DNA from: Alphaproteobacteria bacterium
GTDB lineage: Bacteria; Pseudomonadota; Alphaproteobacteria; RF32; CAG-239
Direction of reading: 5' to 3'
Assembly: GCA_045577985.1 (NCBI GenBank)
Contig: JAZNJJ010000024.1
Span: 82,041-146,040, forward strand
DNA length: 64,000 nt
The notes under the pieces are model-generated. The model ran no database searches. It saw only the letters and a program-made list of their open reading frames with translations, and had not been told where the DNA came from. Shown piece by piece: positions 1,629 through 32,876 of the stretch. Position 1 is the first letter of the stretch; every line of letters begins with the position of its first letter. Position numbers and translations under genes: made by a program.

Positions 1629-2687
<1,059 letters not shown>

Positions 2688-2718
2688 AAATTAAAGTTTT
2701 ATTTTAGAGGATAAGGAT

Positions 2719-7062: not shown

Positions 7063-7118
7063 TTGAAAAACTCCGAATGTAGATTATTTATAATATATAA
7101 TTATCTAGGAGTTTAATT

Positions 7119-7523
7119 ATGAAAACATTGTTTATTATGAGTTTTATCTTTTTGTTATTCGCTTGTGAAACAGTTGGAAATTATAATGCTAATCTAAATA
7201 GATGGGTTGGAAAACCGGAAAAGAATTTAATATATGTATGGGGTGAACCTAATAGTATTTTTAAATTAGGGCAAAATGAAGAAATTATAACATATATTAA
7301 GAAAGATAGAGTTATTGTTCCTCCGCAAATCACTATGTATGATCCTGATTTTAATAGCGTTGATACATTATACGCTCCATTTAGTTATGATGAAGACTTT
7401 ACTTTGCCTCTGTCTGAAAGTAATGGCTATATTGTAAATAATATCTGTCGCACGTCTTTTCATATTAAAGATGGAATTATCCAATCTTGGCAATGGAAAG
7501 GCAATGATTGTGTTGCATTCTAG
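7119..7523 (+). CDS. hypothetical lipoprotein
   Basis: Signal peptide with lipobox LLFAC; no recognisable domain. Confidence 0.5.
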   Translation: MKTLFIMSFIFLLFACETVGNYNANLNRWVGKPEKNLIYVWGEPNSIFKLGQNEEIITYIKKDRVIVPPQITMYDPDFNSVDTLYAPFSYDEDFTLPLSESNGYIVNNICRTSFHIKDGIIQSWQWKGNDCVAF

Positions 7524-8713
7524 CTAATTCTCGACTGAGACATATGATTAATAAGCCTCGTTGGAAGATTATTTAATAAAGTTTTTTTATTTAAATTGTG
7601 ATTAGTTTGATTTAGCAGATTTTCTTTTGCTTTGGTCATACTTTTAGCTATGATGATTGTTTGTAAATCAGCAGGTAGACTTTTTACATAATCAGAGCTT
7701 GTATTGATTTTTTCGCCATTATATGATTGATATGGCACATTATTTATACTACATACTACCATGAACATTTGTCTTAATTCAGCCGGCATAGGATGACAAT
7801 CATTGGAAGCAAGATTTTGTAAGTTTAAACCAATATTTTCTTTTTTAGCAATTTGTACAATTTCTTGTATTTTTGTTGGTATATTAGTTAAATTATTATT
7901 GTTATAATTACTAATAAGTTGGTGTATTTTGGCCTCAAGGGGTATTGTTTTCAATATATTTTTATTGTGTTGTTTTTGTTCGAAATTCGGCAGAACGGTT
8001 TTTGTTAACAATTCTATTGTTTCTGGCTTAAAGTGGTATAACTTTGCCTGTATACGAGGATCTTTCATGTAATTAAGAAATGTTTCCTGACGATTTTCTC
8101 TTTCTATTTTTTGCATTAAATCAGTTACTTTAGGTAATAGCTCATCTTGGGTAATTTTTCCTCGATTATATAAAGCAAATAAATGTAGTAACATTTTTTC
8201 AGGTTGATTTTTAGCACAATCTTTCTCAATGATATCCTTAGTCTTTTTCCGACTTTCCTCCCATAACTTCTTTTCTTCTTTGGTCATTGTTTGCGTTATA
8301 GCTTTTGTTCGTAAGGTATTTCGGAATAAACTTTCTTTTGCGAGTTCTTTTGAAGCTTGGAGACTATATCCAGCTATCGCGGCAGCAACAAAAGGAGGTG
8401 AAGTTACAATTTCTTTATAATCAGGGATGTATGATGATTGTTTTTCTTCATATGGATCTTTATTATATTCAATTTTTCGTAATGCTTCAAAATTATCTTT
8501 GGCTGCTAATTCTATAATTTCATAAGGTAAGCGTCCACCATATCTTAGGCGGATTGAGGCAGGTACTTTTATCCAATTCTGAAAGTAATTGTTGTAATCA
8601 CTATATATGCGAGATAAAGTTTCCGGTTTTACATCATCCGACATGGCTTTGTAATAATCGGTTGTATGATTTGTTTTTAGAAACTCTATAAAGTCATCAC
8701 TAAAACCATGCAT
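7520..8713 (-). CDS. hypothetical protein (orphan, 397 aa)
   Basis: Long ORF preceded by a plausible RBS. No TM segment, signal peptide or known motif was recognised. Confidence 0.5.
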   Translation of the reverse strand: MHGFSDDFIEFLKTNHTTDYYKAMSDDVKPETLSRIYSDYNNYFQNWIKVPASIRLRYGGRLPYEIIELAAKDNFEALRKIEYNKDPYEEKQSSYIPDYKEIVTSPPFVAAAIAGYSLQASKELAKESLFRNTLRTKAITQTMTKEEKKLWEESRKKTKDIIEKDCAKNQPEKMLLHLFALYNRGKITQDELLPKVTDLMQKIERENRQETFLNYMKDPRIQAKLYHFKPETIELLTKTVLPNFEQKQHNKNILKTIPLEAKIHQLISNYNNNNLTNIPTKIQEIVQIAKKENIGLNLQNLASNDCHPMPAELRQMFMVVCSINNVPYQSYNGEKINTSSDYVKSLPADLQTIIIAKSMTKAKENLLNQTNHNLNKKTLLNNLPTRLINHMSQSRIS

Positions 8714-8743
8714 TTTATTTACCTCATATTATGTTTAGGTATG

Positions 8744-10093
8744 TTATCTACCATCCTTACTAAATTTATTTGTTAATCTAGCTATTGTTTCAGGTTTTAA
8801 CATCCCTTTATAATTTTCAAGTTCTTTTCCTTCTAAAGCTTTTACTTCATTACCTTTGTACTCTACTTTTGCATCTTTAGGAGCAATTCCTAAACGTGCA
8901 GCCATGATAAGATCTCGTTGATCTTCCTTTTTTTGTTGTTCAGCGGTTTGCTCAGGAGACATTTTAGCTCGTAGAGATTCTATTTGTTGTTTACGTAAAG
9001 CTTCATTTGTCGTTTTTTGTTCGTCTGTTTCTAGTTTAGAACCTAAAATTGTCTTTTTATCACCATCTTTACCAATTTCGGTTTCTTTTCGCTCTCCAGC
9101 ATTGGTATTCAATGCTTCTTGAATAATTTCCTTTACTAGTTCAGGGTTAGTTTTATATTGTTCCGCTAAGAAAGCTTTTCTGGCGTTTTCTTTTTCTTTC
9201 AATGCGAGATATTTATCTAAATCTTCTTTTGTTCCTCTTGTAGGATGAACGGTTGGCATTTGTTTATCACCTTGACCTATAAATGCTATTTTACCATTTA
9301 ATAGTTTCGCCATTTCTACTTCTTCACTTAGGGCATTTTTGATATCTTCTTTAGTTTTTTCCTCCGAAGAAGGTGTCTCAATTTCTTTTTTATTTTGAGG
9401 TTGAAGTTTGGCAAATTCATCTTTTACTTGTTGGATTTGTTCAGGAGATAATCCGCTATTTGCTAATGTTTGCTCATCTAGTTCTTTAGGAATTGCTCCT
9501 TGAACTTTATTACCATTTATTATGCAAGCAGCATACATATTAGTAGCAGTTTCTTTGGACGCATTTTCCGGAAAAATTACTGGACGACCTTTATTGTCAG
9601 GATCCTTTAGCATTGTATCAAAGGTGTTATAATCAGAATCTTTTGCAACAGTTACTGTATCCATATCTGTATAGTGTACACTTCCACCTTTGAAGGAAGC
9701 AGCAAATCCAGGTTTACTTTCATCTCTAACGTAATCTTGTATTTTTCCTTCAGTAGCTAAGGAATTATAATATTCGTTTTTACGGGCTATCCAATCATCA
9801 TTTTCGATGCTTTTGTCTTCATCTTTTTTACCAAAGGTATAGGTATCTCCTTCACTCTCTTTGGTTTTGTTATCATCTTTTTCTGTGTTATTTTTGTCTG
9901 ACTGATCGGGTTTTGGGTTTTTATCTTTATCGGAGTTTGAAGTATCTATAACAGGGGTATCTTTATGTTTGTCTTTTAAAGTTTCTAAATCTTCTTTATT
10001 TTGAATATTTGACCATTCTGCTTCTGGAATTCCTCTGTCAGTAAAGAATTTTTTATCTTCGTCCGTTAATTGAAAAGTTGGTGTATCAGTCAT
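8744..10093 (-). CDS. hypothetical K/D/E/T-rich, probably disordered protein (449 aa)
   Basis: Long ORF of highly charged, low-complexity sequence with no TM segment or signal peptide. Confidence 0.5.
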   Translation of the reverse strand: MTDTPTFQLTDEDKKFFTDRGIPEAEWSNIQNKEDLETLKDKHKDTPVIDTSNSDKDKNPKPDQSDKNNTEKDDNKTKESEGDTYTFGKKDEDKSIENDDWIARKNEYYNSLATEGKIQDYVRDESKPGFAASFKGGSVHYTDMDTVTVAKDSDYNTFDTMLKDPDNKGRPVIFPENASKETATNMYAACIINGNKVQGAIPKELDEQTLANSGLSPEQIQQVKDEFAKLQPQNKKEIETPSSEEKTKEDIKNALSEEVEMAKLLNGKIAFIGQGDKQMPTVHPTRGTKEDLDKYLALKEKENARKAFLAEQYKTNPELVKEIIQEALNTNAGERKETEIGKDGDKKTILGSKLETDEQKTTNEALRKQQIESLRAKMSPEQTAEQQKKEDQRDLIMAARLGIAPKDAKVEYKGNEVKALEGKELENYKGMLKPETIARLTNKFSKDGR

Positions 10094-10140
10094 CTTAATA
10101 ATCCTTTCTAATAAGAGAATTTTTATCTTATAGTTTCATT

Positions 10141-11379
10141 TTAGCATGTTTTTCGACTTTTGTCTATGCTTTTTGTGTAAAATGAGGTTATTTTATTGTT
10201 GTCAAAATCAGAGTTGGTTATTCCAATGTAATTGATTAAGGTTTTATCTATTTGTTCTTTTGCTATATTATATTGTTCTAAGGCTTTATCGTAAATTTTT
10301 CCTATTTGTGTTTTGTGGTAATCTATATGGTAGCTTTCCTCAACAATATTTCGTATTTTGCCCATTTCTTCTTCAGGAGATAATGTGGTAAGAGGGGGAT
10401 TTTGTGGAGATGGGCATTCTTCTAAATATTTTGTTTCCAAAGCGTTTCTAACGCCTTCTAAATAACATAATTTGGCAAATTCATTAAACATTGTTTGTGC
10501 CGCATCTTTTATGGCAATGATGTCATCGAGATTTGGTGAATGTCTTTGATTGCAAAAGTCTTTAAATGATTGATTAAATTCTTTCTTATTGTTTAAGAAA
10601 AGATTTATGAGGTTCAGTAAAGACGAATTATTAGACATTATTTTTATTAAAGATATTAATTTAATCATACTATTTCTATATCTTTCTGAGTATTTTTTTA
10701 GATATCTAGATTTATGACCAATGAAATTATGCTTTATTTCAAAATCAATGGAGATGTCTCCAAACTTTGTTATTTCTTCTAATGCGATACATAGATATTT
10801 ATGAAGATAGATTTTATTATAGAATAATAATATATCTGAGTAGTGAAAGTGTTTTATAATTTGAGAATATGTTTTAACAAAATCTTCTACTAGTGTAATT
10901 TCTACTTCATTTAAATTTTCTTCTTTGCATACTTGTATTTTTTCGAGTGATTTTCGATAATTTATTTCCAGATCAAGTAAGTTTTCTTTAAAATTTGGGG
11001 GCATGATAGTTGAAATTACACATTTTTTTTGGGCGCTTTGTCTACTTACAGATGTTAATCCTAACCAGAGTCTCAAGGATTGAACTTTAGGTGTTTGTTC
11101 TGGAATAATAATATTTTCTTCAAAATAGTGTTTGAATTGTTTATACTCTTTGTTTAATGATGATGAGTGTTTTATATCATAATGTGCTGCTTGAATGTAT
11201 TCTTTTATTTGGTGATGAAATATGATATAAGGAGATAATTGGCATGTGCTTTTATCAGCGATAACAAAATTGCCGGATGAATCCTGACAAAATGCAAAAT
11301 CAATATTATTGAAGTTTTTAAGAATCGGCTGTAAAAAAGACTTTTCTAGAGCTTGTTGTAAAAATAATTGATTATTCAT
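10141..11379 (-). CDS. hypothetical protein (orphan, 412 aa)
   Basis: Long ORF on the same strand as the two upstream orphans; no recognised domain. Confidence 0.5.
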   Translation of the reverse strand: MNNQLFLQQALEKSFLQPILKNFNNIDFAFCQDSSGNFVIADKSTCQLSPYIIFHHQIKEYIQAAHYDIKHSSSLNKEYKQFKHYFEENIIIPEQTPKVQSLRLWLGLTSVSRQSAQKKCVISTIMPPNFKENLLDLEINYRKSLEKIQVCKEENLNEVEITLVEDFVKTYSQIIKHFHYSDILLFYNKIYLHKYLCIALEEITKFGDISIDFEIKHNFIGHKSRYLKKYSERYRNSMIKLISLIKIMSNNSSLLNLINLFLNNKKEFNQSFKDFCNQRHSPNLDDIIAIKDAAQTMFNEFAKLCYLEGVRNALETKYLEECPSPQNPPLTTLSPEEEMGKIRNIVEESYHIDYHKTQIGKIYDKALEQYNIAKEQIDKTLINYIGITNSDFDNNKITSFYTKSIDKSRKTC

Positions 11380-15932: not shown

Positions 15933-16016
15933 TTTAATTTCCTTATTTGTATTTTATATATATAATATTTTCAACAAAGAATCAAGAGATTATTTGTTGA
16001 AAATATTATAAAAGTA

Positions 16017-16046
16017 TACACTCCCATTATGGGAGTGTATTTTTTT
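16017..16046. terminator. hairpin tacactcccattatgggagtgta followed by a T-run; probable intrinsic terminator (bidirectional?)
   Basis: Perfect inverted repeat with a T7 tract immediately downstream of the stop of the 16062..17453 gene. Confidence 0.5.
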
Positions 16047-16061: not shown

Positions 16062-17453
16062 CTATTTTCCTGCCAGAATTGCTTCAAACAATTCGTGTAC
16101 ACTAGGAATATTGTTATTGGCATAGAGAGGATCTAATCCAAAATGATATACATTGTGTCCTGCAAATGCCAAATTATTTTCTACATCATCACCATGACCT
16201 ATTGCCATAAGTGTTTTATGAATGCAATATGTACGAGGGTCTGGAATTTTTCCTGTATTGCCATTAGCTCTAGACCAACTAGAAAATTGGCATTGAGATA
16301 AGCAACCAACGCATTCTGCTCTATCTTTTTGCATTTCCACCCACTCTGTTGGGGTTAGGAATACAAGAGTAGAATCTGGTGTTTCTTTTATAATACTGTA
16401 GCCTAGTTCTCGTTGATTTATTACGTGAGACATATCTTGTGATTTGATATAAACCGTTTTAACTGGAGATATCGGTAATTCTGTTGTCATCTCTTCATTC
16501 TTTTCAGAACTATATGGAATCTCATTTTCCTTACGATTTAATAAAGAACTTAAAAATTTATTTTTTATAGCGGAAGAATAAAATCCTGTAGGACTAAATT
16601 GTTGCAATACAACATCACCCTTTTTGGTATTTAACATTAATTTTTTCCATGCATCGCTAACAGGACTTTCTTTGGTAATCATTGGTCTTGTACCAAATTG
16701 AAAAGCTACATTTCCTAATTCTGGATTATCAATGTAATCTTGCCAATCGCTTAGGCTCCAAACGCCTCCAGCAATAATTATTGGTAGATTTGGTAATCCG
16801 ATACTGATTAATGCCTTTCTTAGTTCTACCAATCTTTCATATGGTCTTTGTGGTTCATTAGGATTTTCAGCGTTTGATAATCCATTGTGTCCACCTGCCA
16901 ACCAAGGATCTTCATAAACAACACCACCTAAAAATTCTACATAGTTTTTATAAGCTCGTTTCCATAAAACTTGGAGAGCTCTAGCAGATGAAACTATAGG
17001 ATAGTAATATACCCCATGAGATGAAGCAATTTCACCAAGATTGTAAGGCAATCCAGCTCCACAAGTTACTCCGTGAACAAGACCTTTAGCTCCATCTAAT
17101 ACACGGGTTATTACTTCTTGCGAATCGGCCATTTCCCACAGCATATTCATATGAATTCTACCGTTGTTACCTGCTATATCATGAGCAATTTGTGCTTGTG
17201 ATATTCCTCCTTTAACGGCATATTCCACCATCTCACGATGTCTGTTTTCTCTTAGTTTTTCTTGAAATATTTCAGGTATTATAGAACCATCTGTAGATAA
17301 AGCTGTGGCACTGACCATAGATATAGTACCAATACCACCTTCTTTTGCCCAATAGCCAGAGCTCTTACCATCAGTTCCGTTTATTCCTTTTCCTCCTTCT
17401 ATTAAAGGATAAACCATTGCTCCAGAAATATTTTGTTTGTTTATTATTTTCAT
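16062..17453 (-). CDS. nitronate monooxygenase (NMO/2-nitropropane dioxygenase)-family FMN TIM-barrel oxidoreductase with a Cys-containing C-terminal extension
   Basis: GGKGINGTDG... and PIIIAGGV motifs typical of the NMO/FabK/IMPDH-like barrel, plus an extra C-terminal region of about 120 aa containing CVGCLSQC. Confidence 0.65.
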   Translation of the reverse strand: MKIINKQNISGAMVYPLIEGGKGINGTDGKSSGYWAKEGGIGTISMVSATALSTDGSIIPEIFQEKLRENRHREMVEYAVKGGISQAQIAHDIAGNNGRIHMNMLWEMADSQEVITRVLDGAKGLVHGVTCGAGLPYNLGEIASSHGVYYYPIVSSARALQVLWKRAYKNYVEFLGGVVYEDPWLAGGHNGLSNAENPNEPQRPYERLVELRKALISIGLPNLPIIIAGGVWSLSDWQDYIDNPELGNVAFQFGTRPMITKESPVSDAWKKLMLNTKKGDVVLQQFSPTGFYSSAIKNKFLSSLLNRKENEIPYSSEKNEEMTTELPISPVKTVYIKSQDMSHVINQRELGYSIIKETPDSTLVFLTPTEWVEMQKDRAECVGCLSQCQFSSWSRANGNTGKIPDPRTYCIHKTLMAIGHGDDVENNLAFAGHNVYHFGLDPLYANNNIPSVHELFEAILAGK

Positions 17454-17558
17454 TGTATCCTCTTATATTATAATTCATAAAATATGATTATAATATTTTT
17501 CGTTAAAAGAAAAGTAGGCACTTATAAGTGGTATAGTTTCTCTGGAGATACTATAATG

Positions 17559-19025
17559 TTATTGAGCTAATTTAAGTGTATCTAGGGATATCTCGTTTTG
17601 TGAAATAAAAGCAATAATAATGCATATAATTGCGTATATTTTTAACATGCTCTGTAGGTTTATATTTTTTAAGTTCGGAAAATATTTTGTAAGAAAAGTG
17701 AGTATTTTGCTTATTCCTGATGTGCAAATAATTAAGATGATTATTTGGGCAAAAATACCAATATTTTGTAATAAGTGAGATATGGGAGAAATGATTTTAG
17801 ATAGGAATGTAAATATAATGATGTATAGTGCAAGAAACATATAATAGCTATAGAATAAGATATTATTTAATTGTTTTTTCTCTAACTCTTTTTTCTGTAT
17901 ATTTTGTATGGATAATGTTTTTATATCTACTCCTCTAATTGTTTGGGGTTCTTCTTGTTGTTTTTTGAAGTTGTTAATTTTGTTTTTGAATTTTTCGTTG
18001 ATTATACATAAGCCACATCCTTTCGGGGTGAAATATGCATGATTAGCATCCTTTTTACATTGTTTAAGATGCTTTAAGATGTATTCTAATTGATTTTGCC
18101 ATTCAATTGCTGTAGGTCGTTCATTTCCCTTAACAAAGGCTCTTTCAAATAAGCTCATTGTTTTTTTATCAAAATAATCGTGCATACTATAAGGATGTGG
18201 TGCTTGATATGTGTCAGGCCATATTCCGTAAGCATAATGATTGTTTATAATCCGCTCTTGGATTGATAACATATTTTCATTTTTTCTAGGTATTCCTGAA
18301 AATGGATGTATTCCGTCATTTAATAATTTAAATATAATTACGGCAAGAGCAAATTTATCTTGTTCTTCGCCCATTTCTTCACAATTTTGTTGCATACCTT
18401 CTGGATAGATATATTCTTCACTAACGTATTCTGCAGGATATCTTGAGTGTTCTTCTCCATTGATAGAAAAGCCGTCACAGTCAAATAATGCCACAAGCAT
18501 AGTTTTTTTATATATAAATACATTGGATGGTTTTAAATCTACAACATAGTGATTACAAGCGTGTAAAGCGGCAACAACCGATGTTATGTTATACGCGGCA
18601 AAAATTCTATCAATATATTTTTCAGATAAATTCAGTTTTTTGCGAACAGCTTTTTGAATTAGATAATCTAGTGATATTGCTTCTTCTGTATCTATTTTAG
18701 GCATCAAATATCCAACACAAAATCCTTCATCATCTTCAAGTAATGCTGTCGGCCAAGCAATTTGAAAATACTCCTTTCCTTCATAAGGAATTGTTGGAAT
18801 ATTAGGTTTATTGAGGAGCATAGCTTCTAATTTTTTACGATTTGTTTCACTTTTATTTTTATCGTGAAATATTTTAGCTACACTATTTGGATGGCTATTA
18901 TCTATATATATTTTACCAGCAGCTCCTCCTTTATTTAGCAGAGATCCTAGTGTTATTTTTTCGTGATGTCCATCTGGGTATAGGGCATTATATGTAGATT
19001 CTTTGTTTGTCATAGTTTTGCCCAT
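17559..19025 (-). CDS. eukaryotic-like Ser/Thr protein kinase with a C-terminal multi-TM anchor
   Basis: Gly-rich loop GGAAGKIY, VAKIF (beta3 Lys), catalytic loop HYVVDLKPSN, a DFG-like FDCDGF, and three to four hydrophobic helices in the C-terminus. Confidence 0.75.
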   Translation of the reverse strand: MGKTMTNKESTYNALYPDGHHEKITLGSLLNKGGAAGKIYIDNSHPNSVAKIFHDKNKSETNRKKLEAMLLNKPNIPTIPYEGKEYFQIAWPTALLEDDEGFCVGYLMPKIDTEEAISLDYLIQKAVRKKLNLSEKYIDRIFAAYNITSVVAALHACNHYVVDLKPSNVFIYKKTMLVALFDCDGFSINGEEHSRYPAEYVSEEYIYPEGMQQNCEEMGEEQDKFALAVIIFKLLNDGIHPFSGIPRKNENMLSIQERIINNHYAYGIWPDTYQAPHPYSMHDYFDKKTMSLFERAFVKGNERPTAIEWQNQLEYILKHLKQCKKDANHAYFTPKGCGLCIINEKFKNKINNFKKQQEEPQTIRGVDIKTLSIQNIQKKELEKKQLNNILFYSYYMFLALYIIIFTFLSKIISPISHLLQNIGIFAQIIILIICTSGISKILTFLTKYFPNLKNINLQSMLKIYAIICIIIAFISQNEISLDTLKLAQ

Positions 19026-19777
19026 AAAATAGTTTTATCATCGGAGTTTATTCGTTGAGCCCTATTATTATTTAAGGTGTTTTTCAGAGCTTGTATTGCA
19101 TATGTTTTACGTTTTTCTTTTTCAAGATATTCAATAATAGGTATTAAGAATTTTTGATGAATTTTGAAATAATCATCAGAAAATGCAAAACTTGTTACAC
19201 CGTCTGTCATTAGCAATATTCTATTTGCGTTTTCAAAACTTTTAAATCTAAGACAATCTAGCCATTCGTCCATTGTATAAAAATAGGTTTCACAAGAAAA
19301 TGTTCCATTTTCTGGTTCAGAAACTATAAAATTATTGTACTCTCCTTTTTTGAAAGCTATTCCTGCACCATCTCCTATATGGAAAAACATTCCTTTGTTT
19401 TTATGATAAAATACACCTACAATTGTTGCCGAAAAATTAATTAAATCTAGTTGACTTTTACTTTTGTTATGTTTGTGTAAAATAAGTTTTTGACGGGCTA
19501 TTTTTATGGCATTTGATACGTCTTTTTTTATATTTTTTATATCTGAGTTAATCAATATATCACATAAGGTGTTACATATGATTTTTGCTCCGATTTTGCT
19601 ATACTTAGCGGAGCCTGCTCCATCGGATACAACAGCAACCAGTTTATTTTGATTTGTTTTAGAACAACTATAATCTTGGCAAGGTATAGATTTTGCTCTA
19701 TGCAATGCTCCTTTAACACTTGTCGATAATACTTGTATTTGCTGTTTGGGTTTCATTATTATTTCTTTTCGTTCCAA
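19010..19777 (-). CDS. PP2C-family Ser/Thr protein phosphatase
   Basis: PP2C-like metal-binding motifs VVSDGAGSA, HIGDGAG and LLMTDGV; 16-nt overlap with the kinase gene. Confidence 0.65.
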   Translation of the reverse strand: MERKEIIMKPKQQIQVLSTSVKGALHRAKSIPCQDYSCSKTNQNKLVAVVSDGAGSAKYSKIGAKIICNTLCDILINSDIKNIKKDVSNAIKIARQKLILHKHNKSKSQLDLINFSATIVGVFYHKNKGMFFHIGDGAGIAFKKGEYNNFIVSEPENGTFSCETYFYTMDEWLDCLRFKSFENANRILLMTDGVTSFAFSDDYFKIHQKFLIPIIEYLEKEKRKTYAIQALKNTLNNNRAQRINSDDKTILWAKL

Positions 19778-20442
19778 TCTGTTATATCATCAAGGTAGTG
19801 GTTGGCATTTGGGACAGCTTTTGAAATACAGGATACACTACGGCTTAACCATAAGAAAAATTCGGTAAATTTCAATCCAGTCAATCTTTTAGGTGGTAAA
19901 ATAGAAAATTTTGCTAATTTTTCTAAATTTGCACCTTGCGTTCCTATAGCGTGTATAACAACTTTTTTATTCTTTTGAGCATATATACATAATTCAGCAG
20001 AATCCTCCCAGCCATAATCTGTAGGTTCTCCATCACTAATCAAAAAAATCCAAGGACGTTTAGAAGTTATACCACAGCTGTCATATAAACATTTTTGTTC
20101 CTCTATTTTTTTTAGAGCAAGTTCCATTGCTTTTCCTAAAGGTGTTAATCCTCCTGCATCCATTTCTGGAGCTGAAAAATTCATTGCATCAGTCCAATCT
20201 GATGAAACTAATACTTCATCTTTACCAAAAGCTTTTATGATTAATATTTGAACTCTAGAGCTGGCATCAATGTCTTCTTTCAATTCTTGTTCAAGAGCCT
20301 GAAGACCTGCATTGAGTTGTTTTATTGCTTCTCCCCTCATTGATCCTGAACAATCTAGAACAAGAACACAGGGGGTTCTTTCATTAGCATTATCTGCAAA
20401 TTCTACATAAGGAATTATGTTATCTGTATCTTTTTTATTCAT
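19759..20442 (-). CDS. von Willebrand factor A (vWA) domain protein (TerY-like); start moved to the internal Met
   Basis: MIDAS motif LVLDCSGSM. The listed N-terminal extension (20443..20532) overlaps an upstream small lipoprotein ORF in another frame, and an AAGGAAA RBS sits 7 nt before the Met at 20442. Confidence 0.75.
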   Translation of the reverse strand: MNKKDTDNIIPYVEFADNANERTPCVLVLDCSGSMRGEAIKQLNAGLQALEQELKEDIDASSRVQILIIKAFGKDEVLVSSDWTDAMNFSAPEMDAGGLTPLGKAMELALKKIEEQKCLYDSCGITSKRPWIFLISDGEPTDYGWEDSAELCIYAQKNKKVVIHAIGTQGANLEKLAKFSILPPKRLTGLKFTEFFLWLSRSVSCISKAVPNANHYLDDITDWNEKK

Positions 20443-20449
20443 TTTATTT

Positions 20450-20587
20450 TCCTTAATATTTAGGGTATGAATGAGGATATTCACTACCAGGAATAGGAGA
20501 TGGTTCTGAGTATCTACCGCATGCGGATACATTTAATAAAATTCCTAGTATTAGTAATGTTACAATTATTTTATTTGTAGATTTCAT
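20450..20587 (-). CDS. small lipoprotein (45 aa), not in the supplied ORF track
   Basis: Translation MKSTNKIIVTLLILGILLNVSAC GRYSEPSPIPGSEYPHSYPKY has a signal peptide and lipobox VSAC. Its stop lies 8 nt before the vWA start. Confidence 0.4.
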
Positions 20588-20684: not shown

Positions 20685-21215
20685 ATGAATAAATTTTTTA
20701 AAATTGTTTGTATTTTATTGTTTTTATTGTTGGGAAATATTTCAAATGGAAATGCAGGTTTGAATATTTTTCCTCAACCAAGATATATTCCTAAGTTAAG
20801 TTTTTATGGGGATAGTGGAAAATCGTATACAGTTGATAATTTTAAATCTGATTTATTAATGGTGATGATTTGGTCAAGATATTGTGGACCATGTATTGGT
20901 GATATGAAGCATATGGATTCTTTTGCTCAAAAAATGAAAGATAAGGGAGTTAGAGTTATAATAATTTCTCCAGCTAGCGAATGGAAAAGTATTGATGAGC
21001 GTAGAACATTTTTAAAACGTATTGGCGCTCCTAATTTGGTTAGTTATTTAGATAAAAAGGCTAACTTTATGTTGGGGATGGGAGTTATGTCAACACCAAC
21101 TGTTATATTGATAAATAACCGTTCTGAAGAGGTTGGGCAAATATCAGGGTCTGTTGAATGGGATGAACCTGAAGTTATTGATTATATATTAAAATTGAAG
21201 AAAAGTTTATATTAA
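20685..21215 (+). CDS. thioredoxin-like thiol:disulfide oxidoreductase (TlpA/ResA/DsbE family)
   Basis: Signal peptide and WSRYCGPC (CxxC) thioredoxin-fold motif. Confidence 0.7.
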   Translation: MNKFFKIVCILLFLLLGNISNGNAGLNIFPQPRYIPKLSFYGDSGKSYTVDNFKSDLLMVMIWSRYCGPCIGDMKHMDSFAQKMKDKGVRVIIISPASEWKSIDERRTFLKRIGAPNLVSYLDKKANFMLGMGVMSTPTVILINNRSEEVGQISGSVEWDEPEVIDYILKLKKSLY

Positions 21216-21840: not shown

Positions 21841-22473
21841 TTAGTGTAAAAAATTTTGTATTTCAGTAATATATTGATCTCTATCCACATAAAAAATATG
21901 TTTATGGTTTAAGTGATGTCTGGCTGTGATATAAGGTAATGAATATTCAATACAGACTATTTTGGGAGTATTTTTTGCTAGATACAATCTAGCAGCATCT
22001 TCATTATGTACTTCAAAGTATGAATAATTTAATGAATCCAATTGTTGTCGAAATTTACCAGGTTTTTCATTATATGAACCGAGTAACATTATATCATGTT
22101 GTTTATTTCCCACGCAGTAGCTTTCTAAAATATCTATAAATTTTGGCATATTTAATGGTGTGTGTAGATAATGAGCTATTTGTGGAAATACCTTAAATTT
22201 GTATGATTGCGGTTTTAAAACAATTATAGGATATTTTTCTGGATTTATTTCTCGTCCCATGTGATTTATAGTTGATGTAGCTGCTGTATAATTTTCTTCT
22301 ATGTCAAAAATCATAACATCTGGGGTTATTTCTTTTGCATATTGAAGTAATTGATAGACATTATCTGTTCCAAACATTTGAAATGCATGCGAAGTGAAAA
22401 TATCCTTAAAAGCAGATAACATTGGTTTATTATCGTCATATATAAAAATACGTCCTAATGAAGATTGTTGCAT
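21841..22473 (-). CDS. hypothetical protein with an N-terminal receiver (CheY-like)-like domain
   Basis: IFIYDDNKP (acidic pair), DVMIFDIE (candidate phospho-Asp), PIIVLK; no HTH or other output domain seen. Confidence 0.3.
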   Translation of the reverse strand: MQQSSLGRIFIYDDNKPMLSAFKDIFTSHAFQMFGTDNVYQLLQYAKEITPDVMIFDIEENYTAATSTINHMGREINPEKYPIIVLKPQSYKFKVFPQIAHYLHTPLNMPKFIDILESYCVGNKQHDIMLLGSYNEKPGKFRQQLDSLNYSYFEVHNEDAARLYLAKNTPKIVCIEYSLPYITARHHLNHKHIFYVDRDQYITEIQNFLH

Positions 22474-24118: not shown

Positions 24119-24838
24119 TTAATCTGTATTGCAATTTAGTATTTCCATTCTCAATTGGAATAACATGATTTTTGTTAGCCATTTTTTATATGAATAATTG
24201 ATGTTTAGATCTAAATCATTTTTATGGTCTATATTTAAATTTGTTCGTTCTTGCATACTGAGTGAATAATCATATCCTAAAGATTGAAGGGATTTAAGTA
24301 ACTTATATACAGCCTTAGCGGCTTCATATTCAGTTTTATCGGTTTTTACATTTTCTGAATTTCGTGTAAAGTTTTTTATTAAATCGTTTATTCCTCTAAG
24401 TCGACGGATATTAAGAGTTATTTCATCATAATCAGGAGAAGATAGATTATTAGATGTTTTAAGAAGTGATAAAGCGGAAAATAGGGTAAACTCAGTGCGT
24501 TCAATTTGAGTTATAAAATCACATCTTTCTTTATAATCTGATGATGAAATATATCCATCATTCATATTTTTTATTATGGAAGATGCTTCTTGTATGATTG
24601 TTTCATAGATGTCTTTAGGTGAATCTTTATAGCATTCGTGTAATAATGTTTTTCCGACACATTGCAATACTTCTTGGGGAATATAAGTTTTTTGCTCTAA
24701 ATTTATTACATAATTATCATAAGCAAAAATACTTTCTATAAGCAATATATGTGAGATTTTATCTTCTAAAAAAGGATAAGTTTTTTGAACAGCATTGTAT
24801 ATTATATTAAAATATTTACAATCGTCATAACGATTCAT
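24119..24838 (-). CDS. hypothetical protein (239 aa), translationally coupled to the upstream TerB-like gene
   Basis: Its start overlaps the stop of the 24838..25278 gene; no known domain. Confidence 0.45.
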   Translation of the reverse strand: MNRYDDCKYFNIIYNAVQKTYPFLEDKISHILLIESIFAYDNYVINLEQKTYIPQEVLQCVGKTLLHECYKDSPKDIYETIIQEASSIIKNMNDGYISSSDYKERCDFITQIERTEFTLFSALSLLKTSNNLSSPDYDEITLNIRRLRGINDLIKNFTRNSENVKTDKTEYEAAKAVYKLLKSLQSLGYDYSLSMQERTNLNIDHKNDLDLNINYSYKKWLTKIMLFQLRMEILNCNTD

Positions 24839-25278
24839 TAATCGTTCTCCTCAAAAATCAGCTTTGCTTGTTCAATCCAAATTATGCGATCAATAATCCA
24901 GTTACTAATTTGTTCAATTTTTTCCAGTTCTATTCCCATTTGTAAACCAACTTTTCCTATGAACATAACTTCTTTTTCGGATAGTATATTGTCAATGTGT
25001 GATAGAATACATAGTTCTCTTATAAGTTCCATTGCTAAATGGCGGTTTTTTATAATTTTTAAATCTTGGATAACCTTTTCTTCATTAATATTTTGAAAAA
25101 TATCATCAATGTTTTTGATTCCATGTGAAAAAGCTATATCTTTTATAAAATTTGTTTCTGATATATCTTTTATTCCATCAATTTGAGCTAAACATATTAG
25201 AGTTTGAAAAAAAACTTCTTTTTCTTTGGTTGAAGCTTGCGATAAATATGATGGTAAGATATTACTGATGTCTGACAT
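24838..25278 (-). CDS. TerB-like (tellurite-resistance TerB / DjlA N-domain-like) helical protein
   Basis: Two D-G/N-x5-E repeats (AQIDGIKDISETNF and SHIDNILSEKEVMF) in an all-helical protein of about 146 aa, as in PF05099; assigned from memory, not searched. Confidence 0.4.
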   Translation of the reverse strand: MSDISNILPSYLSQASTKEKEVFFQTLICLAQIDGIKDISETNFIKDIAFSHGIKNIDDIFQNINEEKVIQDLKIIKNRHLAMELIRELCILSHIDNILSEKEVMFIGKVGLQMGIELEKIEQISNWIIDRIIWIEQAKLIFEEND

Positions 25279-25406
25279 TGTAAACTCCTTAAGATATTAT
25301 GTTTAATAATATAGAGAATAAGAATATTTTGCAATATAAAAAAATGTTTGAAAAATATTAAGGATTAGCGTAGATAATGATATTATAATTAAATAAGGAT
25401 ATTGAA

Positions 25407-26741
25407 GTGGTGAAGAAATATTTTATAAAAACTTTCGGTTGTCAAATGAATGTATATGATTCTTCTCGGATTGCAGATATGCTAAAAAAAGAAGGATATG
25501 AAGAAACTCCGAAACAGTTTGAAGCAGATGTGGTATTATTTAATACTTGCCATATCAGAGAAAAGGCATCAGAAAAATTATTCTCTGATTTAGGACGTGC
25601 TAATTTGATAAAGTTAGAAAGAGCTGAATTAGGAAAAAGAACAATAATAGGTGTTTCAGGTTGTGTGGTTCAAGCTGAAGATGAGCAGATTATTAAAAGG
25701 GCTCCTTTTGTTGATTTTGCAGTGGGGCCGTTGATGTATCATAAGATTCCTGAAATATTAAGAAAAATCGAAACTCAAAAAGATTATGAAAGTATTGTAA
25801 ATACTGATTTCCCTGCAGATAGTAAATTTGATTTTCTACCAAAGAATAAAGCTCAAGGAGCTTGTTCTTATTTGGCTGTTCAGGAAGGATGTAACAATTT
25901 TTGTACTTATTGTGTTGTTCCATATACTCGTGGGGCTGAATATTCCCGTCCTGTTTGTGATGTAATAGAAGAAGCAAAGAGATTGGTAGAAACTGGAACT
26001 TTAGAAATTAATTTATTGGGGCAAAATGTTAATTCTTACCATGGAGAAGATGAAACTGATAAAGAACGTAATTTGGCTTATTTGTTGCACAGAATTGCGG
26101 AAATAGACGGATTGAAGCGTATTAGATATACAACATCTTATCCTGCAGATGTTGATGACGATCTGATTTCTTGTCATAAAGATATTGATATTTTGATGCC
26201 TTATTTACATTTACCAATTCAGTCCGGTTCTGATAAGATATTGAAGGCTATGAACAGAAGACATAATTCATCTGATTATCTACGAATCGTTGAAAAATTA
26301 CAAAACGCAAATTCTAATTTGCGGATGTCATCTGATTTTATTGTTGGTTTTCCAGGGGAAACAGATGCAGATTTTCAAGCTACTTTAGATATCGTCAATA
26401 AAGTAAAATATATTCAGGCTTTTTCGTTTAAATATAGTAGAAGACCAGGTACACCTGCTGCCGTTATGGATAATCAAATTGAAGAAAAAGTGAAAAAAGA
26501 ACGTTTGGATATATTACAAACACTCTTATTCTCATATCAAGAAAAGTTTAATAAATCGTGTGTAGGAAAAGTAATGCCCGTTTTATTTGAACAAAAAGGA
26601 CGACATAAAGGGCAAATTATTGGACGTACTCCTTATATGCAAAATTTGCATATAGAAACAAAAAGTGATAATATGAATAAAATAGTTGATGTTAAGGTGA
26701 CAGAAGCTACAACAAACTCTCTTAGTGGAAAGGAATTATGA
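25407..26741 (+). CDS. miaB: tRNA-2-methylthio-N6-dimethylallyladenosine synthase
   Basis: Radical-SAM CNNFCTYC motif plus UPF0004 and TRAM domain layout. Confidence 0.9.
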   Translation: MVKKYFIKTFGCQMNVYDSSRIADMLKKEGYEETPKQFEADVVLFNTCHIREKASEKLFSDLGRANLIKLERAELGKRTIIGVSGCVVQAEDEQIIKRAPFVDFAVGPLMYHKIPEILRKIETQKDYESIVNTDFPADSKFDFLPKNKAQGACSYLAVQEGCNNFCTYCVVPYTRGAEYSRPVCDVIEEAKRLVETGTLEINLLGQNVNSYHGEDETDKERNLAYLLHRIAEIDGLKRIRYTTSYPADVDDDLISCHKDIDILMPYLHLPIQSGSDKILKAMNRRHNSSDYLRIVEKLQNANSNLRMSSDFIVGFPGETDADFQATLDIVNKVKYIQAFSFKYSRRPGTPAAVMDNQIEEKVKKERLDILQTLLFSYQEKFNKSCVGKVMPVLFEQKGRHKGQIIGRTPYMQNLHIETKSDNMNKIVDVKVTEATTNSLSGKEL

Positions 26742-27708
26742 TATGGCGGAATTATGTTTTGAATTGTTTAATAATCAATTGGTTCAGCAACTAGTTGGTG
26801 CTGCAGATAGTAATTTGAAATTAATTGAGAAAATGTTAAATGTTGAAATACTAAGTTTTGGTAATCAAATTACGGTAAAAGGTGCGCAAAGTGACGTGGA
26901 AAATGCAAAAACTGCTATAGAGATTTTGTATAATAAAGTAAGTAAAGGAATCGATGTAGGAGAGCAAGAAGTTAAAGCTGCTGTGAGAATGAGTGGAGAT
27001 TGTCATACAGAAGATGAAAAACATAATTTAAACGATATTGTGTTAAAAACTAAAAAAAGATATATTTATCCTCGTTCAGCAACACAAGCTAAGTATATTC
27101 AAGAGATGATGAAAAATGAATTGGTTTTTGGCTTAGGACCAGCGGGTACAGGTAAAACTTATTTGGCTGTGGCTCTTGCCGTATCGATGATGTTAGAGGG
27201 GACAATTGATAAAATTATTTTATCTCGTCCTGCTGTCGAAGCTGGTGAAAATTTAGGATTCTTACCAGGGGATTTGAAAGAAAAAGTGGATCCATATTTA
27301 CGTCCATTATATGATGCATTGTATGAAATGCTTCCAGCTGAGCAAGTAGATAAAAAATTGGCATTGGGAGAAATTGAAATTGCTCCTTTAGCTTTTATGC
27401 GTGGTAGAACTCTTTCCAATTCATTTATTATACTAGATGAGGCTCAGAATACTACGCCTATGCAGATGAAGATGTTTCTGACTCGTTTGGGTGAAAATTC
27501 TAGAATGGTGGTAAATGGTGATTTGAGCCAAGTTGATTTGCCTCGTGGTGTAATATCAGGTTTGAGAGATGCTTTAGAAACATTGCGTAATGTTTCTAAT
27601 ATATCATCTGTATCGTTTAGTTCTACTGATGTAGTTAGACATGGGTTAGTTGCTAAAATTGTTCAAGCATATGAAGAAAAAAGTAAAAAACAGCAGGAAA
27701 ATGACTGA
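26725..27708 (+). CDS. ybeZ: PhoH-like ATPase (YbeZ)
   Basis: Walker A GPAGTGKTYLAVA and the conserved miaB-phoH-ybeY order. Confidence 0.9.
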   Translation: MERNYDMAELCFELFNNQLVQQLVGAADSNLKLIEKMLNVEILSFGNQITVKGAQSDVENAKTAIEILYNKVSKGIDVGEQEVKAAVRMSGDCHTEDEKHNLNDIVLKTKKRYIYPRSATQAKYIQEMMKNELVFGLGPAGTGKTYLAVALAVSMMLEGTIDKIILSRPAVEAGENLGFLPGDLKEKVDPYLRPLYDALYEMLPAEQVDKKLALGEIEIAPLAFMRGRTLSNSFIILDEAQNTTPMQMKMFLTRLGENSRMVVNGDLSQVDLPRGVISGLRDALETLRNVSNISSVSFSSTDVVRHGLVAKIVQAYEEKSKKQQEND

Positions 27709-28222
27709 TATAATATTAGATACTACGATTGATAATGAGCGTTGGTGTAGAGCTATCAACGATGTTGAGGGTTTGATTAATAAAGTAAAAGATATTACTT
27801 TTTCATATTTACTGGAAAATGAAAATATTACTATTTTAAGAAGTGAAAAGATTAAAAGAATATCTATTTGTTTAAGTGATGATGCCCATATTTGGGCATT
27901 GAATAAGGAATTTAGAGGAATTGATAAACCAACAAATGTGTTATCTTTTGCAAATATAGATTTTGAAAATTTTGCTTCAGAAAATGATATTTTTTCCGAA
28001 ATTGAAATTGGAGATATTATTATTGCTTTAGAAACTTTAGAAAGAGAAGCATCTTTAGAAAAGATTTCATTAGAAGATCATTTTTGTCATCTATTATTGC
28101 ATGGTTTTTTGCATTTATGTGGCTATGATCATATGGATGATGAAGAGGCTGAATATATGGAAAATTTAGAAATAAAAATATTAGCAATGTTAAATATAGG
28201 TAATCCATATCAGGAGAAATAA
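27650..28222 (+). CDS. ybeY: rRNA maturation endoribonuclease YbeY
   Basis: HGFLHLCGYDH zinc-binding motif. Confidence 0.85.
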   Translation: MLKLFKHMKKKVKNSRKMTDIILDTTIDNERWCRAINDVEGLINKVKDITFSYLLENENITILRSEKIKRISICLSDDAHIWALNKEFRGIDKPTNVLSFANIDFENFASENDIFSEIEIGDIIIALETLEREASLEKISLEDHFCHLLLHGFLHLCGYDHMDDEEAEYMENLEIKILAMLNIGNPYQEK

Positions 28223-28224
28223 TA

Positions 28225-29121
28225 ATGGACGATAACAAGCAAGATAATGTGGGATTTTGGAATTGTATTTGCCAGTATTTTAGTCATAAAGAAACTGTTC
28301 GTGAAACTATTGAAGATTTAATAGAAGAAGCAGGGGGAGCAGGAGAACACTGCCAATTTAGTGAGCATGAGCAATTATTGTTAAATAATATTCTTTATTT
28401 GAAAGATAAAAAATGTTCTCAAGTTATGGTTCCAAGAGCAGAAATTATTGCTTTTCAAAAAGATGGAAATGTTGAAGAACTTGCTAAGTTAATGATTGAA
28501 AGAGGTCATTCTCGTATACCTGTATATGGTGAAACATTAGATGATATTTTAGGCATAGTTCATATTATTGATGTAGCAAAATATTTAATGAAGGGAAATA
28601 ATAAAATAAAAGCAGAAAATTTGATAAGTAATAAGGTCAAATTTGTTTCTCCGGCAATGAGAGTGTTAGATTTGTTGCGCGATATGCAAAAAAACAAAGT
28701 TCATATTGCTATGGTCGTAGATGAATATGGAGGAATTGATGGTTTAGTGACTATTGAAGATTTATTAGAAGAAATTGTTGGTGATATTGAAGATGAGTAT
28801 GATATTGATGTTGAACCTGAGATCACTATTCAATCTAAAAATGTCATAATAGCAGATGCAAAAGCTGAGTTAACAGATTTGGAAGAAAAGACAGGATTAA
28901 ATCTACGCGATAATATTGAAGAAGATGAAGAAGGTGAAGTTGATACTTTAGGTGGATTGGTGTTTTTAATGATTGAACGAGTTCCTCAACGAGGTGAGGT
29001 TATTGAAGGAAAAAATGGTATAAGATTTAGAATCCTAGATGTTGATTCTCGTCATATAAAGAAAATTATGATTGTAAAGAAGAATGAAGATAATGTTGAT
29101 GGAGATAGTGAAAAAAATTGA
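28225..29121 (+). CDS. corC: CBS-pair / CorC_HlyC transporter-associated domain protein
   Basis: CBS domain pair plus C-terminal CorC/HlyC domain, in its conserved position after ybeY. Confidence 0.8.
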   Translation: MDDNKQDNVGFWNCICQYFSHKETVRETIEDLIEEAGGAGEHCQFSEHEQLLLNNILYLKDKKCSQVMVPRAEIIAFQKDGNVEELAKLMIERGHSRIPVYGETLDDILGIVHIIDVAKYLMKGNNKIKAENLISNKVKFVSPAMRVLDLLRDMQKNKVHIAMVVDEYGGIDGLVTIEDLLEEIVGDIEDEYDIDVEPEITIQSKNVIIADAKAELTDLEEKTGLNLRDNIEEDEEGEVDTLGGLVFLMIERVPQRGEVIEGKNGIRFRILDVDSRHIKKIMIVKKNEDNVDGDSEKN

Positions 29122-30634: not shown

Positions 30635-31069
30635 CTTTTCTATTTCAGTTTTTATTTCTACAGGAATTCTAGTTGGTTTATGGGTTGCAATGTTCATGTG
30701 GACAGCTTTTATCTCAATAGAAGCTAAAATTTCGTCATTTCTGATAATATTTTGTTGCATAATTATATATGCTCCACCAATTTCTATAACTTTACAACTC
30801 ACTACTAAAGTATCATCTAAGAAGGCTGAAGATAGATATTCAACATGGCATGAACGGACGACAAATCCGGTTTGTGTCGTTTCTAATTTATCTTGCTGAC
30901 TAATATTGATTATTCTCAAAAATTCAGTTCTTGCTCTTTCTGCAAATTTTAGATAATTTGCATAGTAAACAATTCCTCCCGCATCTGTATCTTCATAATA
31001 AATGCGTATGGGGTAAACGAAAGTTTTTTCAATAATTTTTCCACTTGTTGGTGAGATATCATAAGACAT
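30626..31069 (-). CDS. ybgC: YbgC-type acyl-CoA thioesterase (4HBT fold)
   Basis: Hot-dog fold motifs and position immediately downstream of ruvB. Confidence 0.7.
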   Translation of the reverse strand: MSYDISPTSGKIIEKTFVYPIRIYYEDTDAGGIVYYANYLKFAERARTEFLRIINISQQDKLETTQTGFVVRSCHVEYLSSAFLDDTLVVSCKVIEIGGAYIIMQQNIIRNDEILASIEIKAVHMNIATHKPTRIPVEIKTEIEKLI

Positions 31070-32127: not shown

Positions 32128-32129
32128 AA

Positions 32130-32771: not shown

Positions 32772-32876
32772 TTTAACTCCTTTGTTTTTTTTAAGGTAAA
32801 CAAAATATTGACTTGTGGCAAGAGTTTTGTTGCATTTCTACAAAGTATAATTTATAAAAATAGATGAGAGGGATGT

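Follow-up and report, generated by a model that had tools for sequence, protein, structure and literature searches.

The subject of this analysis is a set of three adjacent genes, here termed the triad, in a 64,000-nucleotide stretch of DNA (the window) from an Alphaproteobacteria bacterium (GenBank assembly GCA_045577985.1, contig JAZNJJ010000024.1, positions 82,041 to 146,040 of the forward strand). The three genes encode a TerY/YegL-like vWA protein, a PP2C-type Ser/Thr phosphatase, and a membrane-anchored Hanks-type Ser/Thr kinase. The triad very likely belongs to the TerY-P family and, within it, to the sub-type represented by yegL-pphC-yegI of Escherichia coli. The reading favored here, to which a probability of about 0.6 is assigned, is that it forms a resident cellular, probably envelope-related regulatory switch that is chromosomal and vertically inherited. 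The synteny of the locus, the slow evolution of its vWA protein, and its housekeeping surroundings argue for a resident cellular function rather than for a mobile antiphage cassette. What is new is that the triad is fixed as a core module in a large, uncultured clade of gut Alphaproteobacteria and that it is coupled to an unnamed family of small lipoproteins in a neighborhood with an envelope flavor.

Gene order and coding sequences

Five consecutive, co-directional open reading frames (ORFs) occupy positions 16062-20587 of the minus strand. In the order in which they would be transcribed, the first four encode a small lipoprotein (20453-20587; 44 amino acids, with a signal peptide and a lipobox), the vWA protein (19759-20442; 227 amino acids), the phosphatase, which is of the PphC/YegK type (19010-19756; 248 amino acids), and the kinase (17559-19025; 488 amino acids, or 484 if translation begins at Met5, position 19013); the fifth encodes a flavoprotein of the NMO family that is described further below. 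A terminator-like hairpin with an 11-bp stem (16016-16040, minus strand), located 3' of the NMO gene, closes the co-directional block. This hairpin was the only notable result of a consensus scan for promoters and terminators, in which promoter-like matches were as frequent as expected from shuffled sequence and are uninformative.

The original prediction, made from the sequence alone, had placed co-directional genes with vWA, PP2C, and kinase domains at this location and had proposed profile searches as a check. Pfam recovered all three domains with significant E-values (VWA and VWA_2 in the first protein, PP2C_2 in the second, and Pkinase in the third), and all of the motifs that had been named are present in the translations (DCSGSM in the vWA protein; DGAGSA, GDGAG, and TDGV in the phosphatase; GGAAGK, VAKIF, DLKPSN, and DCDGF in the kinase). 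The genes had also been described as overlapping, which is correct for the phosphatase and kinase but not for the vWA and phosphatase genes. The phosphatase start codon (ATG, 19756) lies 2 nt past the vWA stop codon, while the end of the phosphatase gene and the kinase ORF have 16 nt in common; a kinase start at Met5 would reduce this overlap to 4 nt (ATGA). The longest ORF for the vWA protein would open at an ATG at position 20532; the start was instead assigned to the ATG at 20442 because it is preceded by an AAGGA Shine-Dalgarno sequence, because orthologs are 226-232 amino acids long, and because the same start was called independently in an identical contig. Only 10 nt separate the lipoprotein stop codon from this ATG. 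The triad genes are translationally coupled.

Assignment to the TerY-P family

As summarized from Anantharaman et al. (2012) in two later papers, a TerY-P triad comprises a TerY-like vWA protein, a PP2C phosphatase, and a Ser/Thr kinase to which a zinc ribbon is fused (PMC11090510, PMC4978471). The locus encodes each of these: a vWA protein with a MIDAS site, an adjoining PP2C phosphatase, and a kinase with a C-terminal zinc ribbon. TerY-P triads also tend to adjoin ter, DNA-processing, restriction, or secretion modules, none of which adjoins the triad in the window; this tendency is not a requirement of the family. The earlier suggestion of a TerY-P-type triad was borne out protein by protein, in that the vWA protein, phosphatase, and kinase, including its zinc ribbon, are homologous to the TerY, PP2C, and kinase proteins of ter plasmids. 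The closest characterized relative, which the original prediction had not mentioned, is YegL-PphC-YegI of E. coli, and similarity to these proteins exceeds that to the ter-plasmid proteins. In BLASTP comparisons, the vWA protein is 42% identical to YegL over its full length (E-value of 3e-48), the phosphatase is 25% identical to PphC over its full length (3e-16), and the kinase is 29% identical to residues 1-317 of YegI (4e-28), with no similarity past YegI residue 317. The corresponding values for ter plasmids are ~32% identity to the TerY paralogs (7e-15), 26% to the PP2C phosphatase (1e-12), and 22% to the kinase (5e-10), in the last case in an alignment that spans the zinc-ribbon Cys motif. 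JGI labels on homologs of the kinase had pointed to YegI, relatives being labeled 'helix-hairpin-helix protein with protein kinase domain'.

Biochemical activities have been reported for two of the E. coli proteins. YegI, which crosses the inner membrane twice and lacks a sensor domain, is a Ser/Thr kinase whose activity is sensitive to staurosporine and whose autophosphorylation follows second-order kinetics (10.1101/819920). PphC, a PP2C-like phosphatase, is active as well and removes phosphate from YegI (10.1101/303594). The earlier remark that this combination of genes has no established function therefore stands for the physiological role of the YegL-type triad but not for the family, given these activities and given that a TerY-P-like branch whose kinase carries an OB fold protects against T7-like phages (Gao et al., 2020, in PMC11090510 and PMC7699616).

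The vWA protein, phosphatase, and kinase

The vWA protein matched PF13519 (VWA_2; E-value of 3.2e-06) and PF00092 (VWA; 9.2e-06), and both matches exceed the Pfam cut-offs. Its MIDAS residues (D30-x-S32-x-S34, T100, and D137) are intact and invariant in the alignment. A C-terminal motif, F196..W198-x-S200-x-S202-x4-S207, does not vary among the clade proteins, E. coli YegL, and plasmid TerY (residue numbers are those of the 227-amino acid protein; the conservation alignment runs one higher). Hydropathy analysis revealed neither a transmembrane (TM) segment nor a signal peptide, and the protein is predicted to be cytoplasmic and soluble. The phosphatase matched PP2C_2 with an E-value of 6e-38 over profile positions 2-208 of 209, has invariant metal-site residues (D28, D45-G-A-G-S49, G128-D129-G130, D185-G186, and D239-D240), and has no TM segment by hydropathy.

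The kinase matched Pkinase with an E-value of 2e-12 and is built from a kinase domain (residues 1-320), a CHCC zinc ribbon (C323, H329, C337, and C340), a basic helical linker, and three TM helices. The C-terminal membrane anchor foreseen in the original prediction corresponds to three hydrophobic segments in the hydropathy profile (389-415, 424-442, and 457-481), which are joined by loops of ~8-14 residues and followed by a tail of 7 residues. In an alignment with 33 homologs, with identities as low as 29%, the residues that are invariant or nearly so include G34 and G37 of the glycine loop, the ATP-binding K51 (VAKIF), D163, K165, and N168 of the catalytic loop, the Mg-binding D182 (DCDGF), D184, the APE-like E209, and D223. 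Further, the four zinc-ribbon residues are invariant across 34 diverse homologs that include YegI. An AlphaFold2 model (pLDDT of 81.5) comprises a kinase fold, a long helix, and a C-terminal three-helix bundle, and Foldseek searches with it returned protein kinases only, of a generic eukaryotic-like type with no specific relative. The protein is predicted to reside in the inner membrane, with its catalytic domain and zinc ribbon in the cytoplasm and without an extracytoplasmic sensor domain. A total of 568 close homologs were found, all of ~485 amino acids and all from metagenome-assembled genomes (MAGs) of gut and rumen Alphaproteobacteria. The nearest kinases from outside this clade carry ankyrin, Sel1, or FG-GAP repeats behind the zinc ribbon.

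The small lipoprotein

The gene that precedes the vWA gene encodes a signal peptide, a lipobox (VSAC), and a mature peptide of ~21 amino acids (CGRYSEPSPIPGSEYPHSYPKY), and a weak Shine-Dalgarno sequence lies 5' of its ORF. The ORF was called independently in the identical contig and was found by tblastn 5' of the vWA gene in essentially all loci of the clade; by a simple rule, an ORF with a lipobox is present in 68 of 79 loci. The mature peptides share the consensus CG[KR]xSxPxPxEGSGYPHxYP, in which C23, G24, P38, H39, Y41, and P42 are invariant. The tiny lipoprotein gene that had been noticed at this position is thus real, conserved, and coupled to the operon, with the correction that its product has 44 rather than 45 residues. 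A profile search gathered 342 clusters of such proteins, 41-52 amino acids in length, all annotated as 'hypothetical protein' and all from MAGs of Alphaproteobacteria; none of the 342 clusters carries a Pfam domain. No such gene was found upstream of the out-group triads described below or of E. coli yegL. The lipoprotein is treated here as a clade-specific component of the operon and as a member of a previously unnamed family. Identity with LptM (YifL) was considered and rejected, as the match to PF13627 (LptM_cons) had an E-value of 0.017 and a score of 15.4 bits against a cut-off of 27.3 bits, and only 4 of 22 family members matched at an E-value of 1 or less, over the lipobox alone.

Distribution, rates of evolution, and genomic context

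A scan of one genome per GTDB species yielded 493 stretches that encode a relative of the kinase. Synteny was assessed in the best 80 of these, all of which belong to the clade of the window, by tblastn with the window proteins as queries. Members of this clade are named CAG:495, Candidatus Scatocola, and 'uncultured Azospirillum/Rhodospirillaceae' and originate from the guts of humans, ruminants, horses, and chickens; the surmise of an AT-rich, host-associated alphaproteobacterium was borne out, in that the source is an AT-rich alphaproteobacterium of the gut or rumen. The genomes of the clade may be small, the longest contig of one species being 1.87 Mb. The conservation of gene neighborhood that had been proposed as a further check was found both within the clade, where all 79 informative genomes, each representing one species, have the three genes in colinear order, and in distant out-groups. 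In the out-group contigs L086-L089 (45-73% GC), the order of vWA, phosphatase, and kinase genes is kept and the vWA proteins are 51-58% identical to that of the window, while genes for the lipoprotein, the redoxin described below, and the NMO protein were not found in these loci. It should be noted that the metagenome scan for out-group kinases mostly returned the same clade and that only L086-L089, which are short contigs, were clearly outside of it, such that sampling of out-groups is thin. One of them, L087, carries two tandem TerY-like vWA genes (positions 1622-3036). Azospirillum brasilense also encodes the triad. Of 5426 complete E. coli genomes, 5415 carry yegL-pphC as a single copy on the chromosome, indicating that this sub-type is core-like in two distant lineages.

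The vWA gene is the slowest-evolving gene of the neighborhood. Among clade loci, the median identity of its product to that of the window is 85% (minimum of 78% across 79 species), as compared to 82% for LeuS, 80% for DedA, 70% for FolD, 66% for the NMO protein, 62% for the kinase, 59% for the phosphatase, 49% for the lipoprotein, and 46% for the redoxin. The locus shows that the YegL-type triad can be a fixed gene set under strong purifying selection, here in at least 79 uncultured alphaproteobacterial species of gut and rumen, a pattern that argues for a resident cellular function beside the antiphage role of another branch of the family. The wider surroundings of the triad in the window are housekeeping in character, with genes for PBP2/RodA, LeuS-LptE-HolA, DedA, FolD, MiaB-PhoH-YbeY-CorC-Lnt, and RuvB, and the GC content of the locus equals that of its flanks. 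The outer flanks of DedA/VTT, FolD, and LeuS are common to the nearer sub-clade only.

Proposed mechanism

In the mechanism proposed here, the kinase would be held in the inner membrane by its three C-terminal TM helices, with its kinase domain and zinc ribbon facing the cytoplasm. By analogy with YegI, it is probably activated by oligomerization or clustering and autophosphorylation, after which it would phosphorylate Ser/Thr residues. The vWA protein is the most likely partner and output of the kinase, its C-terminal serines being candidate phosphosites, and the co-translated phosphatase would reset the switch. The MIDAS site of the vWA protein may mediate a metal-dependent contact with a conserved cellular target, and such a contact would explain why this protein evolves so slowly. 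In this clade, the lipidated peptide of ~21 amino acids is a likely accessory or input on the periplasmic side. The domain identities, intact catalytic residues, homologies, and synteny are shown here and the membrane anchoring is predicted, while the substrate, the signal, the role of the lipoprotein, and the physiological output in this scheme are inferred; envelope, stress, or host sensing is plausible. The redoxin and the FabX-like NMO protein are considered conserved neighbors, not demonstrated components.

A more specific and distinctly tentative version of this scheme makes the lipoprotein a dedicated periplasmic input for a kinase without a sensor domain, which could dock on the three-helix anchor of the kinase and report the state of the envelope. 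Kinase and phosphatase would translate this state into phosphorylation of the highly conserved vWA protein, which in turn would act on a core target in the cell. Candidate signals for such a docking lipoprotein could be lipoprotein trafficking, redox status by way of the TlpA-like redoxin, or lipid status. If this were true, the YegL-type triad would be a housekeeping pathway from envelope to cytoplasm, not a defense system, and the first physiological handle on YegL/PphC/YegI of E. coli would be at hand.

Several considerations weigh against a resident, envelope-related switch. All YegL-type triads are without a known substrate, signal, or phenotype, and yegI and pphC are barely expressed in laboratory E. 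coli (PMC13232886). Phosphorylation of the vWA protein by the kinase and a link between lipoprotein and kinase are suggested only by gene coupling and conserved motifs, and the synteny of the redoxin and NMO genes could reflect phylogenetic inertia. The antiphage branch of the family is both related and proven, and conservation within one clade is compatible with a role in defense. Finally, a PADLOC search of the six proteins of the locus gave no convincing match, with none for the vWA protein, an E-value of 0.0055 for the phosphatase (against PDLC02222), and weak matches for the kinase (PD-T4-6, 1.4e-05; mad6, 1.4e-04), a negative that is weak since the TerY and PP2C models of PADLOC are narrow and also fail with YegL, PphC, and the TerY and PP2C proteins of ter plasmids.

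Possible antiphage defense

The triad could instead be an antiphage system of the TerY-P type, in which infection would trigger the kinase, the vWA protein would serve as sensor or effector, and phosphorylation of host or phage proteins would abort the infection. This is considered unlikely. The triad does belong to the same broad family as TerY-P-like systems that have been validated (PMC11090510, PMC7699616), and the weak kinase matches in PADLOC are to defense models. In the window, however, the kinase has TM helices where the kinases of validated systems have an OB fold, and PADLOC gave no match for the vWA protein and a poor one for the phosphatase. The genomic setting likewise differs among triads. 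The TerY-P triads of Helicobacter pylori and of CoCoNuT systems sit inside restriction islands (PMC4978471, PMC11090510), and two out-group triads adjoin conflict genes. In L088, a DUF4062-NACHT-TPR STAND protein is encoded downstream of the kinase (positions 4261-8106), and in MT835511.1 (L173; positions 25231-37869), a human fecal virome scaffold deposited as 'UNVERIFIED: Bacteriophage sp.', a different TerY-P-like triad, whose vWA protein is 29% identical to that of the window, is followed by a MkoA-like helicase (PADLOC, 1.8e-99) in a defense-type context. In contrast, the triad of the window occupies a fixed position between housekeeping flanks in at least 79 species, and neither in the window nor in the clade loci was a nuclease, helicase, integrase, or transposase gene found near it. 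Defense genes turn over rapidly, whereas the vWA protein of this locus changes more slowly than LeuS.

Viral sequences did not strengthen the case for defense. A pattern scan of IMG/VR viral contigs returned no relatives of the kinase. In a phage collection, two close matches to the vWA protein were found, both in UNVERIFIED scaffolds of human fecal viromes (MT836238.1 and the 4-kb MT839721.1). The longer of these, MT836238.1 (L172), is bacterial chromosomal DNA with the same block of redoxin, lipoprotein, triad, and NMO genes.

The redoxin and the FabX-like protein

Two conserved neighbors flank the lipoprotein and triad genes. On the plus strand, and divergent from them, a gene for a TlpA-like periplasmic thiol-disulfide oxidoreductase (20685-21215; 176 amino acids; Pfam Redoxin and AhpC-TSA; CGPC motif) lies directly upstream in 77 of 77 informative loci, including those in which the outer flanks differ. 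The protein matched Redoxin with an E-value of 2.3e-11 and has a hydrophobic N-terminal signal or anchor by hydropathy. Its gene shares a promoter region with the lipoprotein-triad operon. On the other side, the minus-strand gene at 16062-17453 encodes a FabX-like NMO-family FMN flavoprotein of 463 amino acids (Pfam NMO, 1.6e-12). Its best sequence match in the PDB is H. pylori FabX (7e1q and 9lt5; E-value of 1e-21 and 20-22% identity), a fatty-acid (decanoyl-ACP) dehydrogenase/isomerase that binds a [4Fe-4S] cluster through four Cys residues, C300, C304, C308, and C320 (PMC8626469). Structural comparison also favored FabX: an AlphaFold2 model of the NMO protein (pLDDT of 81.6) had FabX as its top Foldseek hit (3e-17, as compared to 6e-11 for FabK), with a TM-score on the target of 0.71-0.75.

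The NMO protein and FabX share an NMO-type FMN TIM barrel and a catalytic His, and each has four Cys residues toward its C-terminus. The catalytic His and FMN-binding Glu of FabX (H182 and E175) align with H189 and E181 of the NMO protein, and H189 together with C381-x2-C384-x3-C388-x21-C410 is invariant across 33 homologs. The two proteins differ in an insert of ~85 amino acids in the NMO protein (residues ~300-385) and in the spacing of the Cys residues, which is C-x3-C-x3-C-x11-C in FabX and C-x2-C-x3-C-x21-C in the NMO protein; around this motif, at residues 385-388 and 390-402, pLDDT of the model is below 50. By sequence and model, the NMO protein is classed as a FabX-like FMN enzyme, and it likely binds an Fe-S cluster. 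Homologs of FabX were deemed rare in the flora of the healthy human gut (PMC8626469). The FabX-like variant described here is widespread in gut Alphaproteobacteria MAGs, with 8000 candidate homologs, the best 120 of which are 65-100% identical to it, and the locus thereby extends FabX-like FMN/Fe-S enzymes to gut-associated Alphaproteobacteria.

Between the kinase and NMO genes lies a 105-nt spacer (17454-17558, minus strand) in which an alignment of species revealed three conserved non-coding elements. The first, after the kinase stop codon, is an imperfect stem-loop (TAGTTTCC-N4-GGAAACTA) whose 3' arm is more conserved than its 5' arm. The second is an invariant box, AAGTGCCTACTTT (17511-17523), which contains a 5-bp inverted repeat, recurs in the spacers of 38 of 50 species, and has a single exact copy within the window. 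The third, ~20 nt downstream of the AAGTGCCTACTTT box, is a TATAAT-like box. No terminator was found in the spacer by the consensus scan. The spacer is probably a regulated promoter/operator for the FabX-like gene, which probably forms a transcription unit of its own. Among 76 informative loci (four others being uninformative), 65 have the NMO gene directly downstream of the kinase, 4 have it at another place in the locus, and 7 lack it; in L053 and L061 it has been relocated and still adjoins the block. The original prediction had regarded the NMO gene as an extension of the module. This was not upheld, since the spacer is conserved and promoter-like and the gene is absent or displaced in 11 of the 76 species, indicating that it is a frequent neighbor and not a component.

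These neighbors nonetheless raise the prospect of a six-gene unit for envelope and lipid homeostasis, in which the kinase would sense the membrane and, through the vWA protein, tune the synthesis of unsaturated fatty acids or the redox maturation of the envelope. Such a unit would account for the persistence of the block where its outer flanks change, with the redoxin gene in 77 of 77 loci and the NMO gene in 65 plus 4 of 76, and for the continued adjacency of the NMO gene in the two loci in which it has moved. It would also suit the location of the lipoprotein, kinase, and redoxin, all of which are membrane or periplasmic products, and the fatty-acid chemistry of FabX, the closest structural relative of the NMO protein. 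Nevertheless, none of the three extra genes (for the lipoprotein, redoxin, and NMO protein) accompanies the out-group triads, 7 species loci have no NMO gene, and the promoter-like spacer with its own box suggests that the NMO gene is regulated independently. The insert and Cys spacing that set the NMO protein apart from FabX also speak against simply transferring the FabX substrate to it, and adjacency within one clade may simply be inherited. An integrated unit of six genes is therefore judged improbable, and a switch made up of the triad, with the lipoprotein as a likely accessory, remains the preferred reading.

Possible tellurite-type stress sensing and chance adjacency

Less probable still is a sensor of metal or xenobiotic stress of the Ter type, that is, a metal-sensing phosphorylation switch tied to tellurite-resistance genes, a hypothesis summarized in PMC11090510. 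In its favor, the MIDAS metal site of the vWA protein is intact, and the protein shares homology with TerY of ter operons, where terY is contiguous with genes for TerD/TerX, TerY-C, a PP2C phosphatase, and a kinase. However, no genes for TerD, TerB, TerC, TerZ, TerA, or TerW were found near the triad, and the vWA protein is closer to YegL (42%) than to TerY of ter operons (32%). The sole hint came from a 146-amino acid ORF (24838-25278, minus strand) located 4.4 kb away and flagged as faint TerB in a related contig, whose match to TerB in the window is not significant (E-value of 0.086, against a cut-off of 24.4 bits) and leaves a Ter link unsupported. That the triad is a chance adjacency of three unrelated genes or an annotation artifact can be dismissed, as the domain E-values are significant, the coding sequences overlap or abut, and the three genes follow one and the same order in 79 of 79 species as well as in high-GC out-groups, Azospirillum, E. 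coli, and ter plasmids.

Other features of the window

Beyond the redoxin gene, the minus strand encodes a 210-amino acid protein (21841-22473) that matched only the first half of a response-regulator receiver domain, with an E-value of 2e-06 that falls short of the Pfam cut-off. Within the nearer sub-clade, the protein is conserved yet evolves quickly (36-50% identity), and it may be a degenerate or atypical receiver. Between the genes for RodA and LeuS, three consecutive ORFs (7520-11379, minus strand) of 397, 449, and 412 amino acids had no Pfam match at an E-value of 1e-5 or less, and in the 8-10 kb bin of this region both GC skew and AT skew depart from the values of the flanks. A small SRP RNA (Rfam RF00169, 57 bits) is encoded at 38029-38123 on the minus strand. 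A scan of the 64-kb window for tRNA genes was negative.

Comparison with known systems

The triad shares the three-domain logic of the antiphage TerY-P-like systems (Gao et al., 2020) and of the TerY-P modules of Type II/III-A CoCoNuT McrBC systems (PMC11090510, PMC7699616). In the antiphage systems, an OB fold follows the kinase domain (PMC11090510), whereas in the window this place is taken by a helical linker and three TM helices. The CoCoNuT modules are embedded in nuclease/helicase operons (PMC11090510), and the triad of the window is without such partners.

The TerY-P modules of ter plasmids are a second point of reference. Of the 2330 records returned by a tblastn search of plasmids, most are ter plasmids of enterobacteria, each with three matches to the vWA protein, and the order on an annotated ter plasmid is TerW, VWA, TerD-family, VWA, TerY-C, PP2C, and kinase. 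These modules, such as those of Klebsiella IncF/IncHI plasmids, have the MIDAS site, the C-terminal W-x-S-x-S motif, and the kinase zinc ribbon in common with the window. They differ in having three vWA paralogs (one with TerY-C), TerD/TerX and TerW, a PP2C protein of 577 amino acids, a soluble kinase, and a location on plasmids, whereas in the window one vWA gene is accompanied by genes for a minimal PP2C phosphatase of 248 amino acids and a TM-anchored kinase, with no ter genes and at a fixed chromosomal site.

The triad is therefore a known kind of system, and its closest characterized relative is found in E. coli K-12. The E. coli locus, yegL-pphC(yegK)-yegI, encodes the same three proteins in the same order, and is likewise chromosomal and core-like (5415 of 5426 genomes, and 79 of 79 species in the clade). 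Neither kinase has an extracytoplasmic sensor, and both reside in the inner membrane, as established experimentally for YegI and as predicted for the kinase of the window. They differ in architecture, in that YegI has 648 amino acids, two TM helices, and a long cytoplasmic C-terminal region (~436-648), while the kinase of the window has 488 amino acids and ends 7 residues past its third TM helix. In YegI, moreover, the Asn of the catalytic loop is missing and DCDGF is replaced by DSDSF, whereas the kinase of the window retains N168 and the family consensus. Additionally, the E. coli locus is without the upstream small lipoprotein, the adjacent redoxin, and the NMO gene. These likenesses and differences do not overturn the current understanding of the family. 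They do provide comparative leverage on the unsolved function of YegL/PphC/YegI, for which the invariant Ser motif of the vWA protein, the small-lipoprotein family, and the envelope-related neighbors of the triad offer leads.

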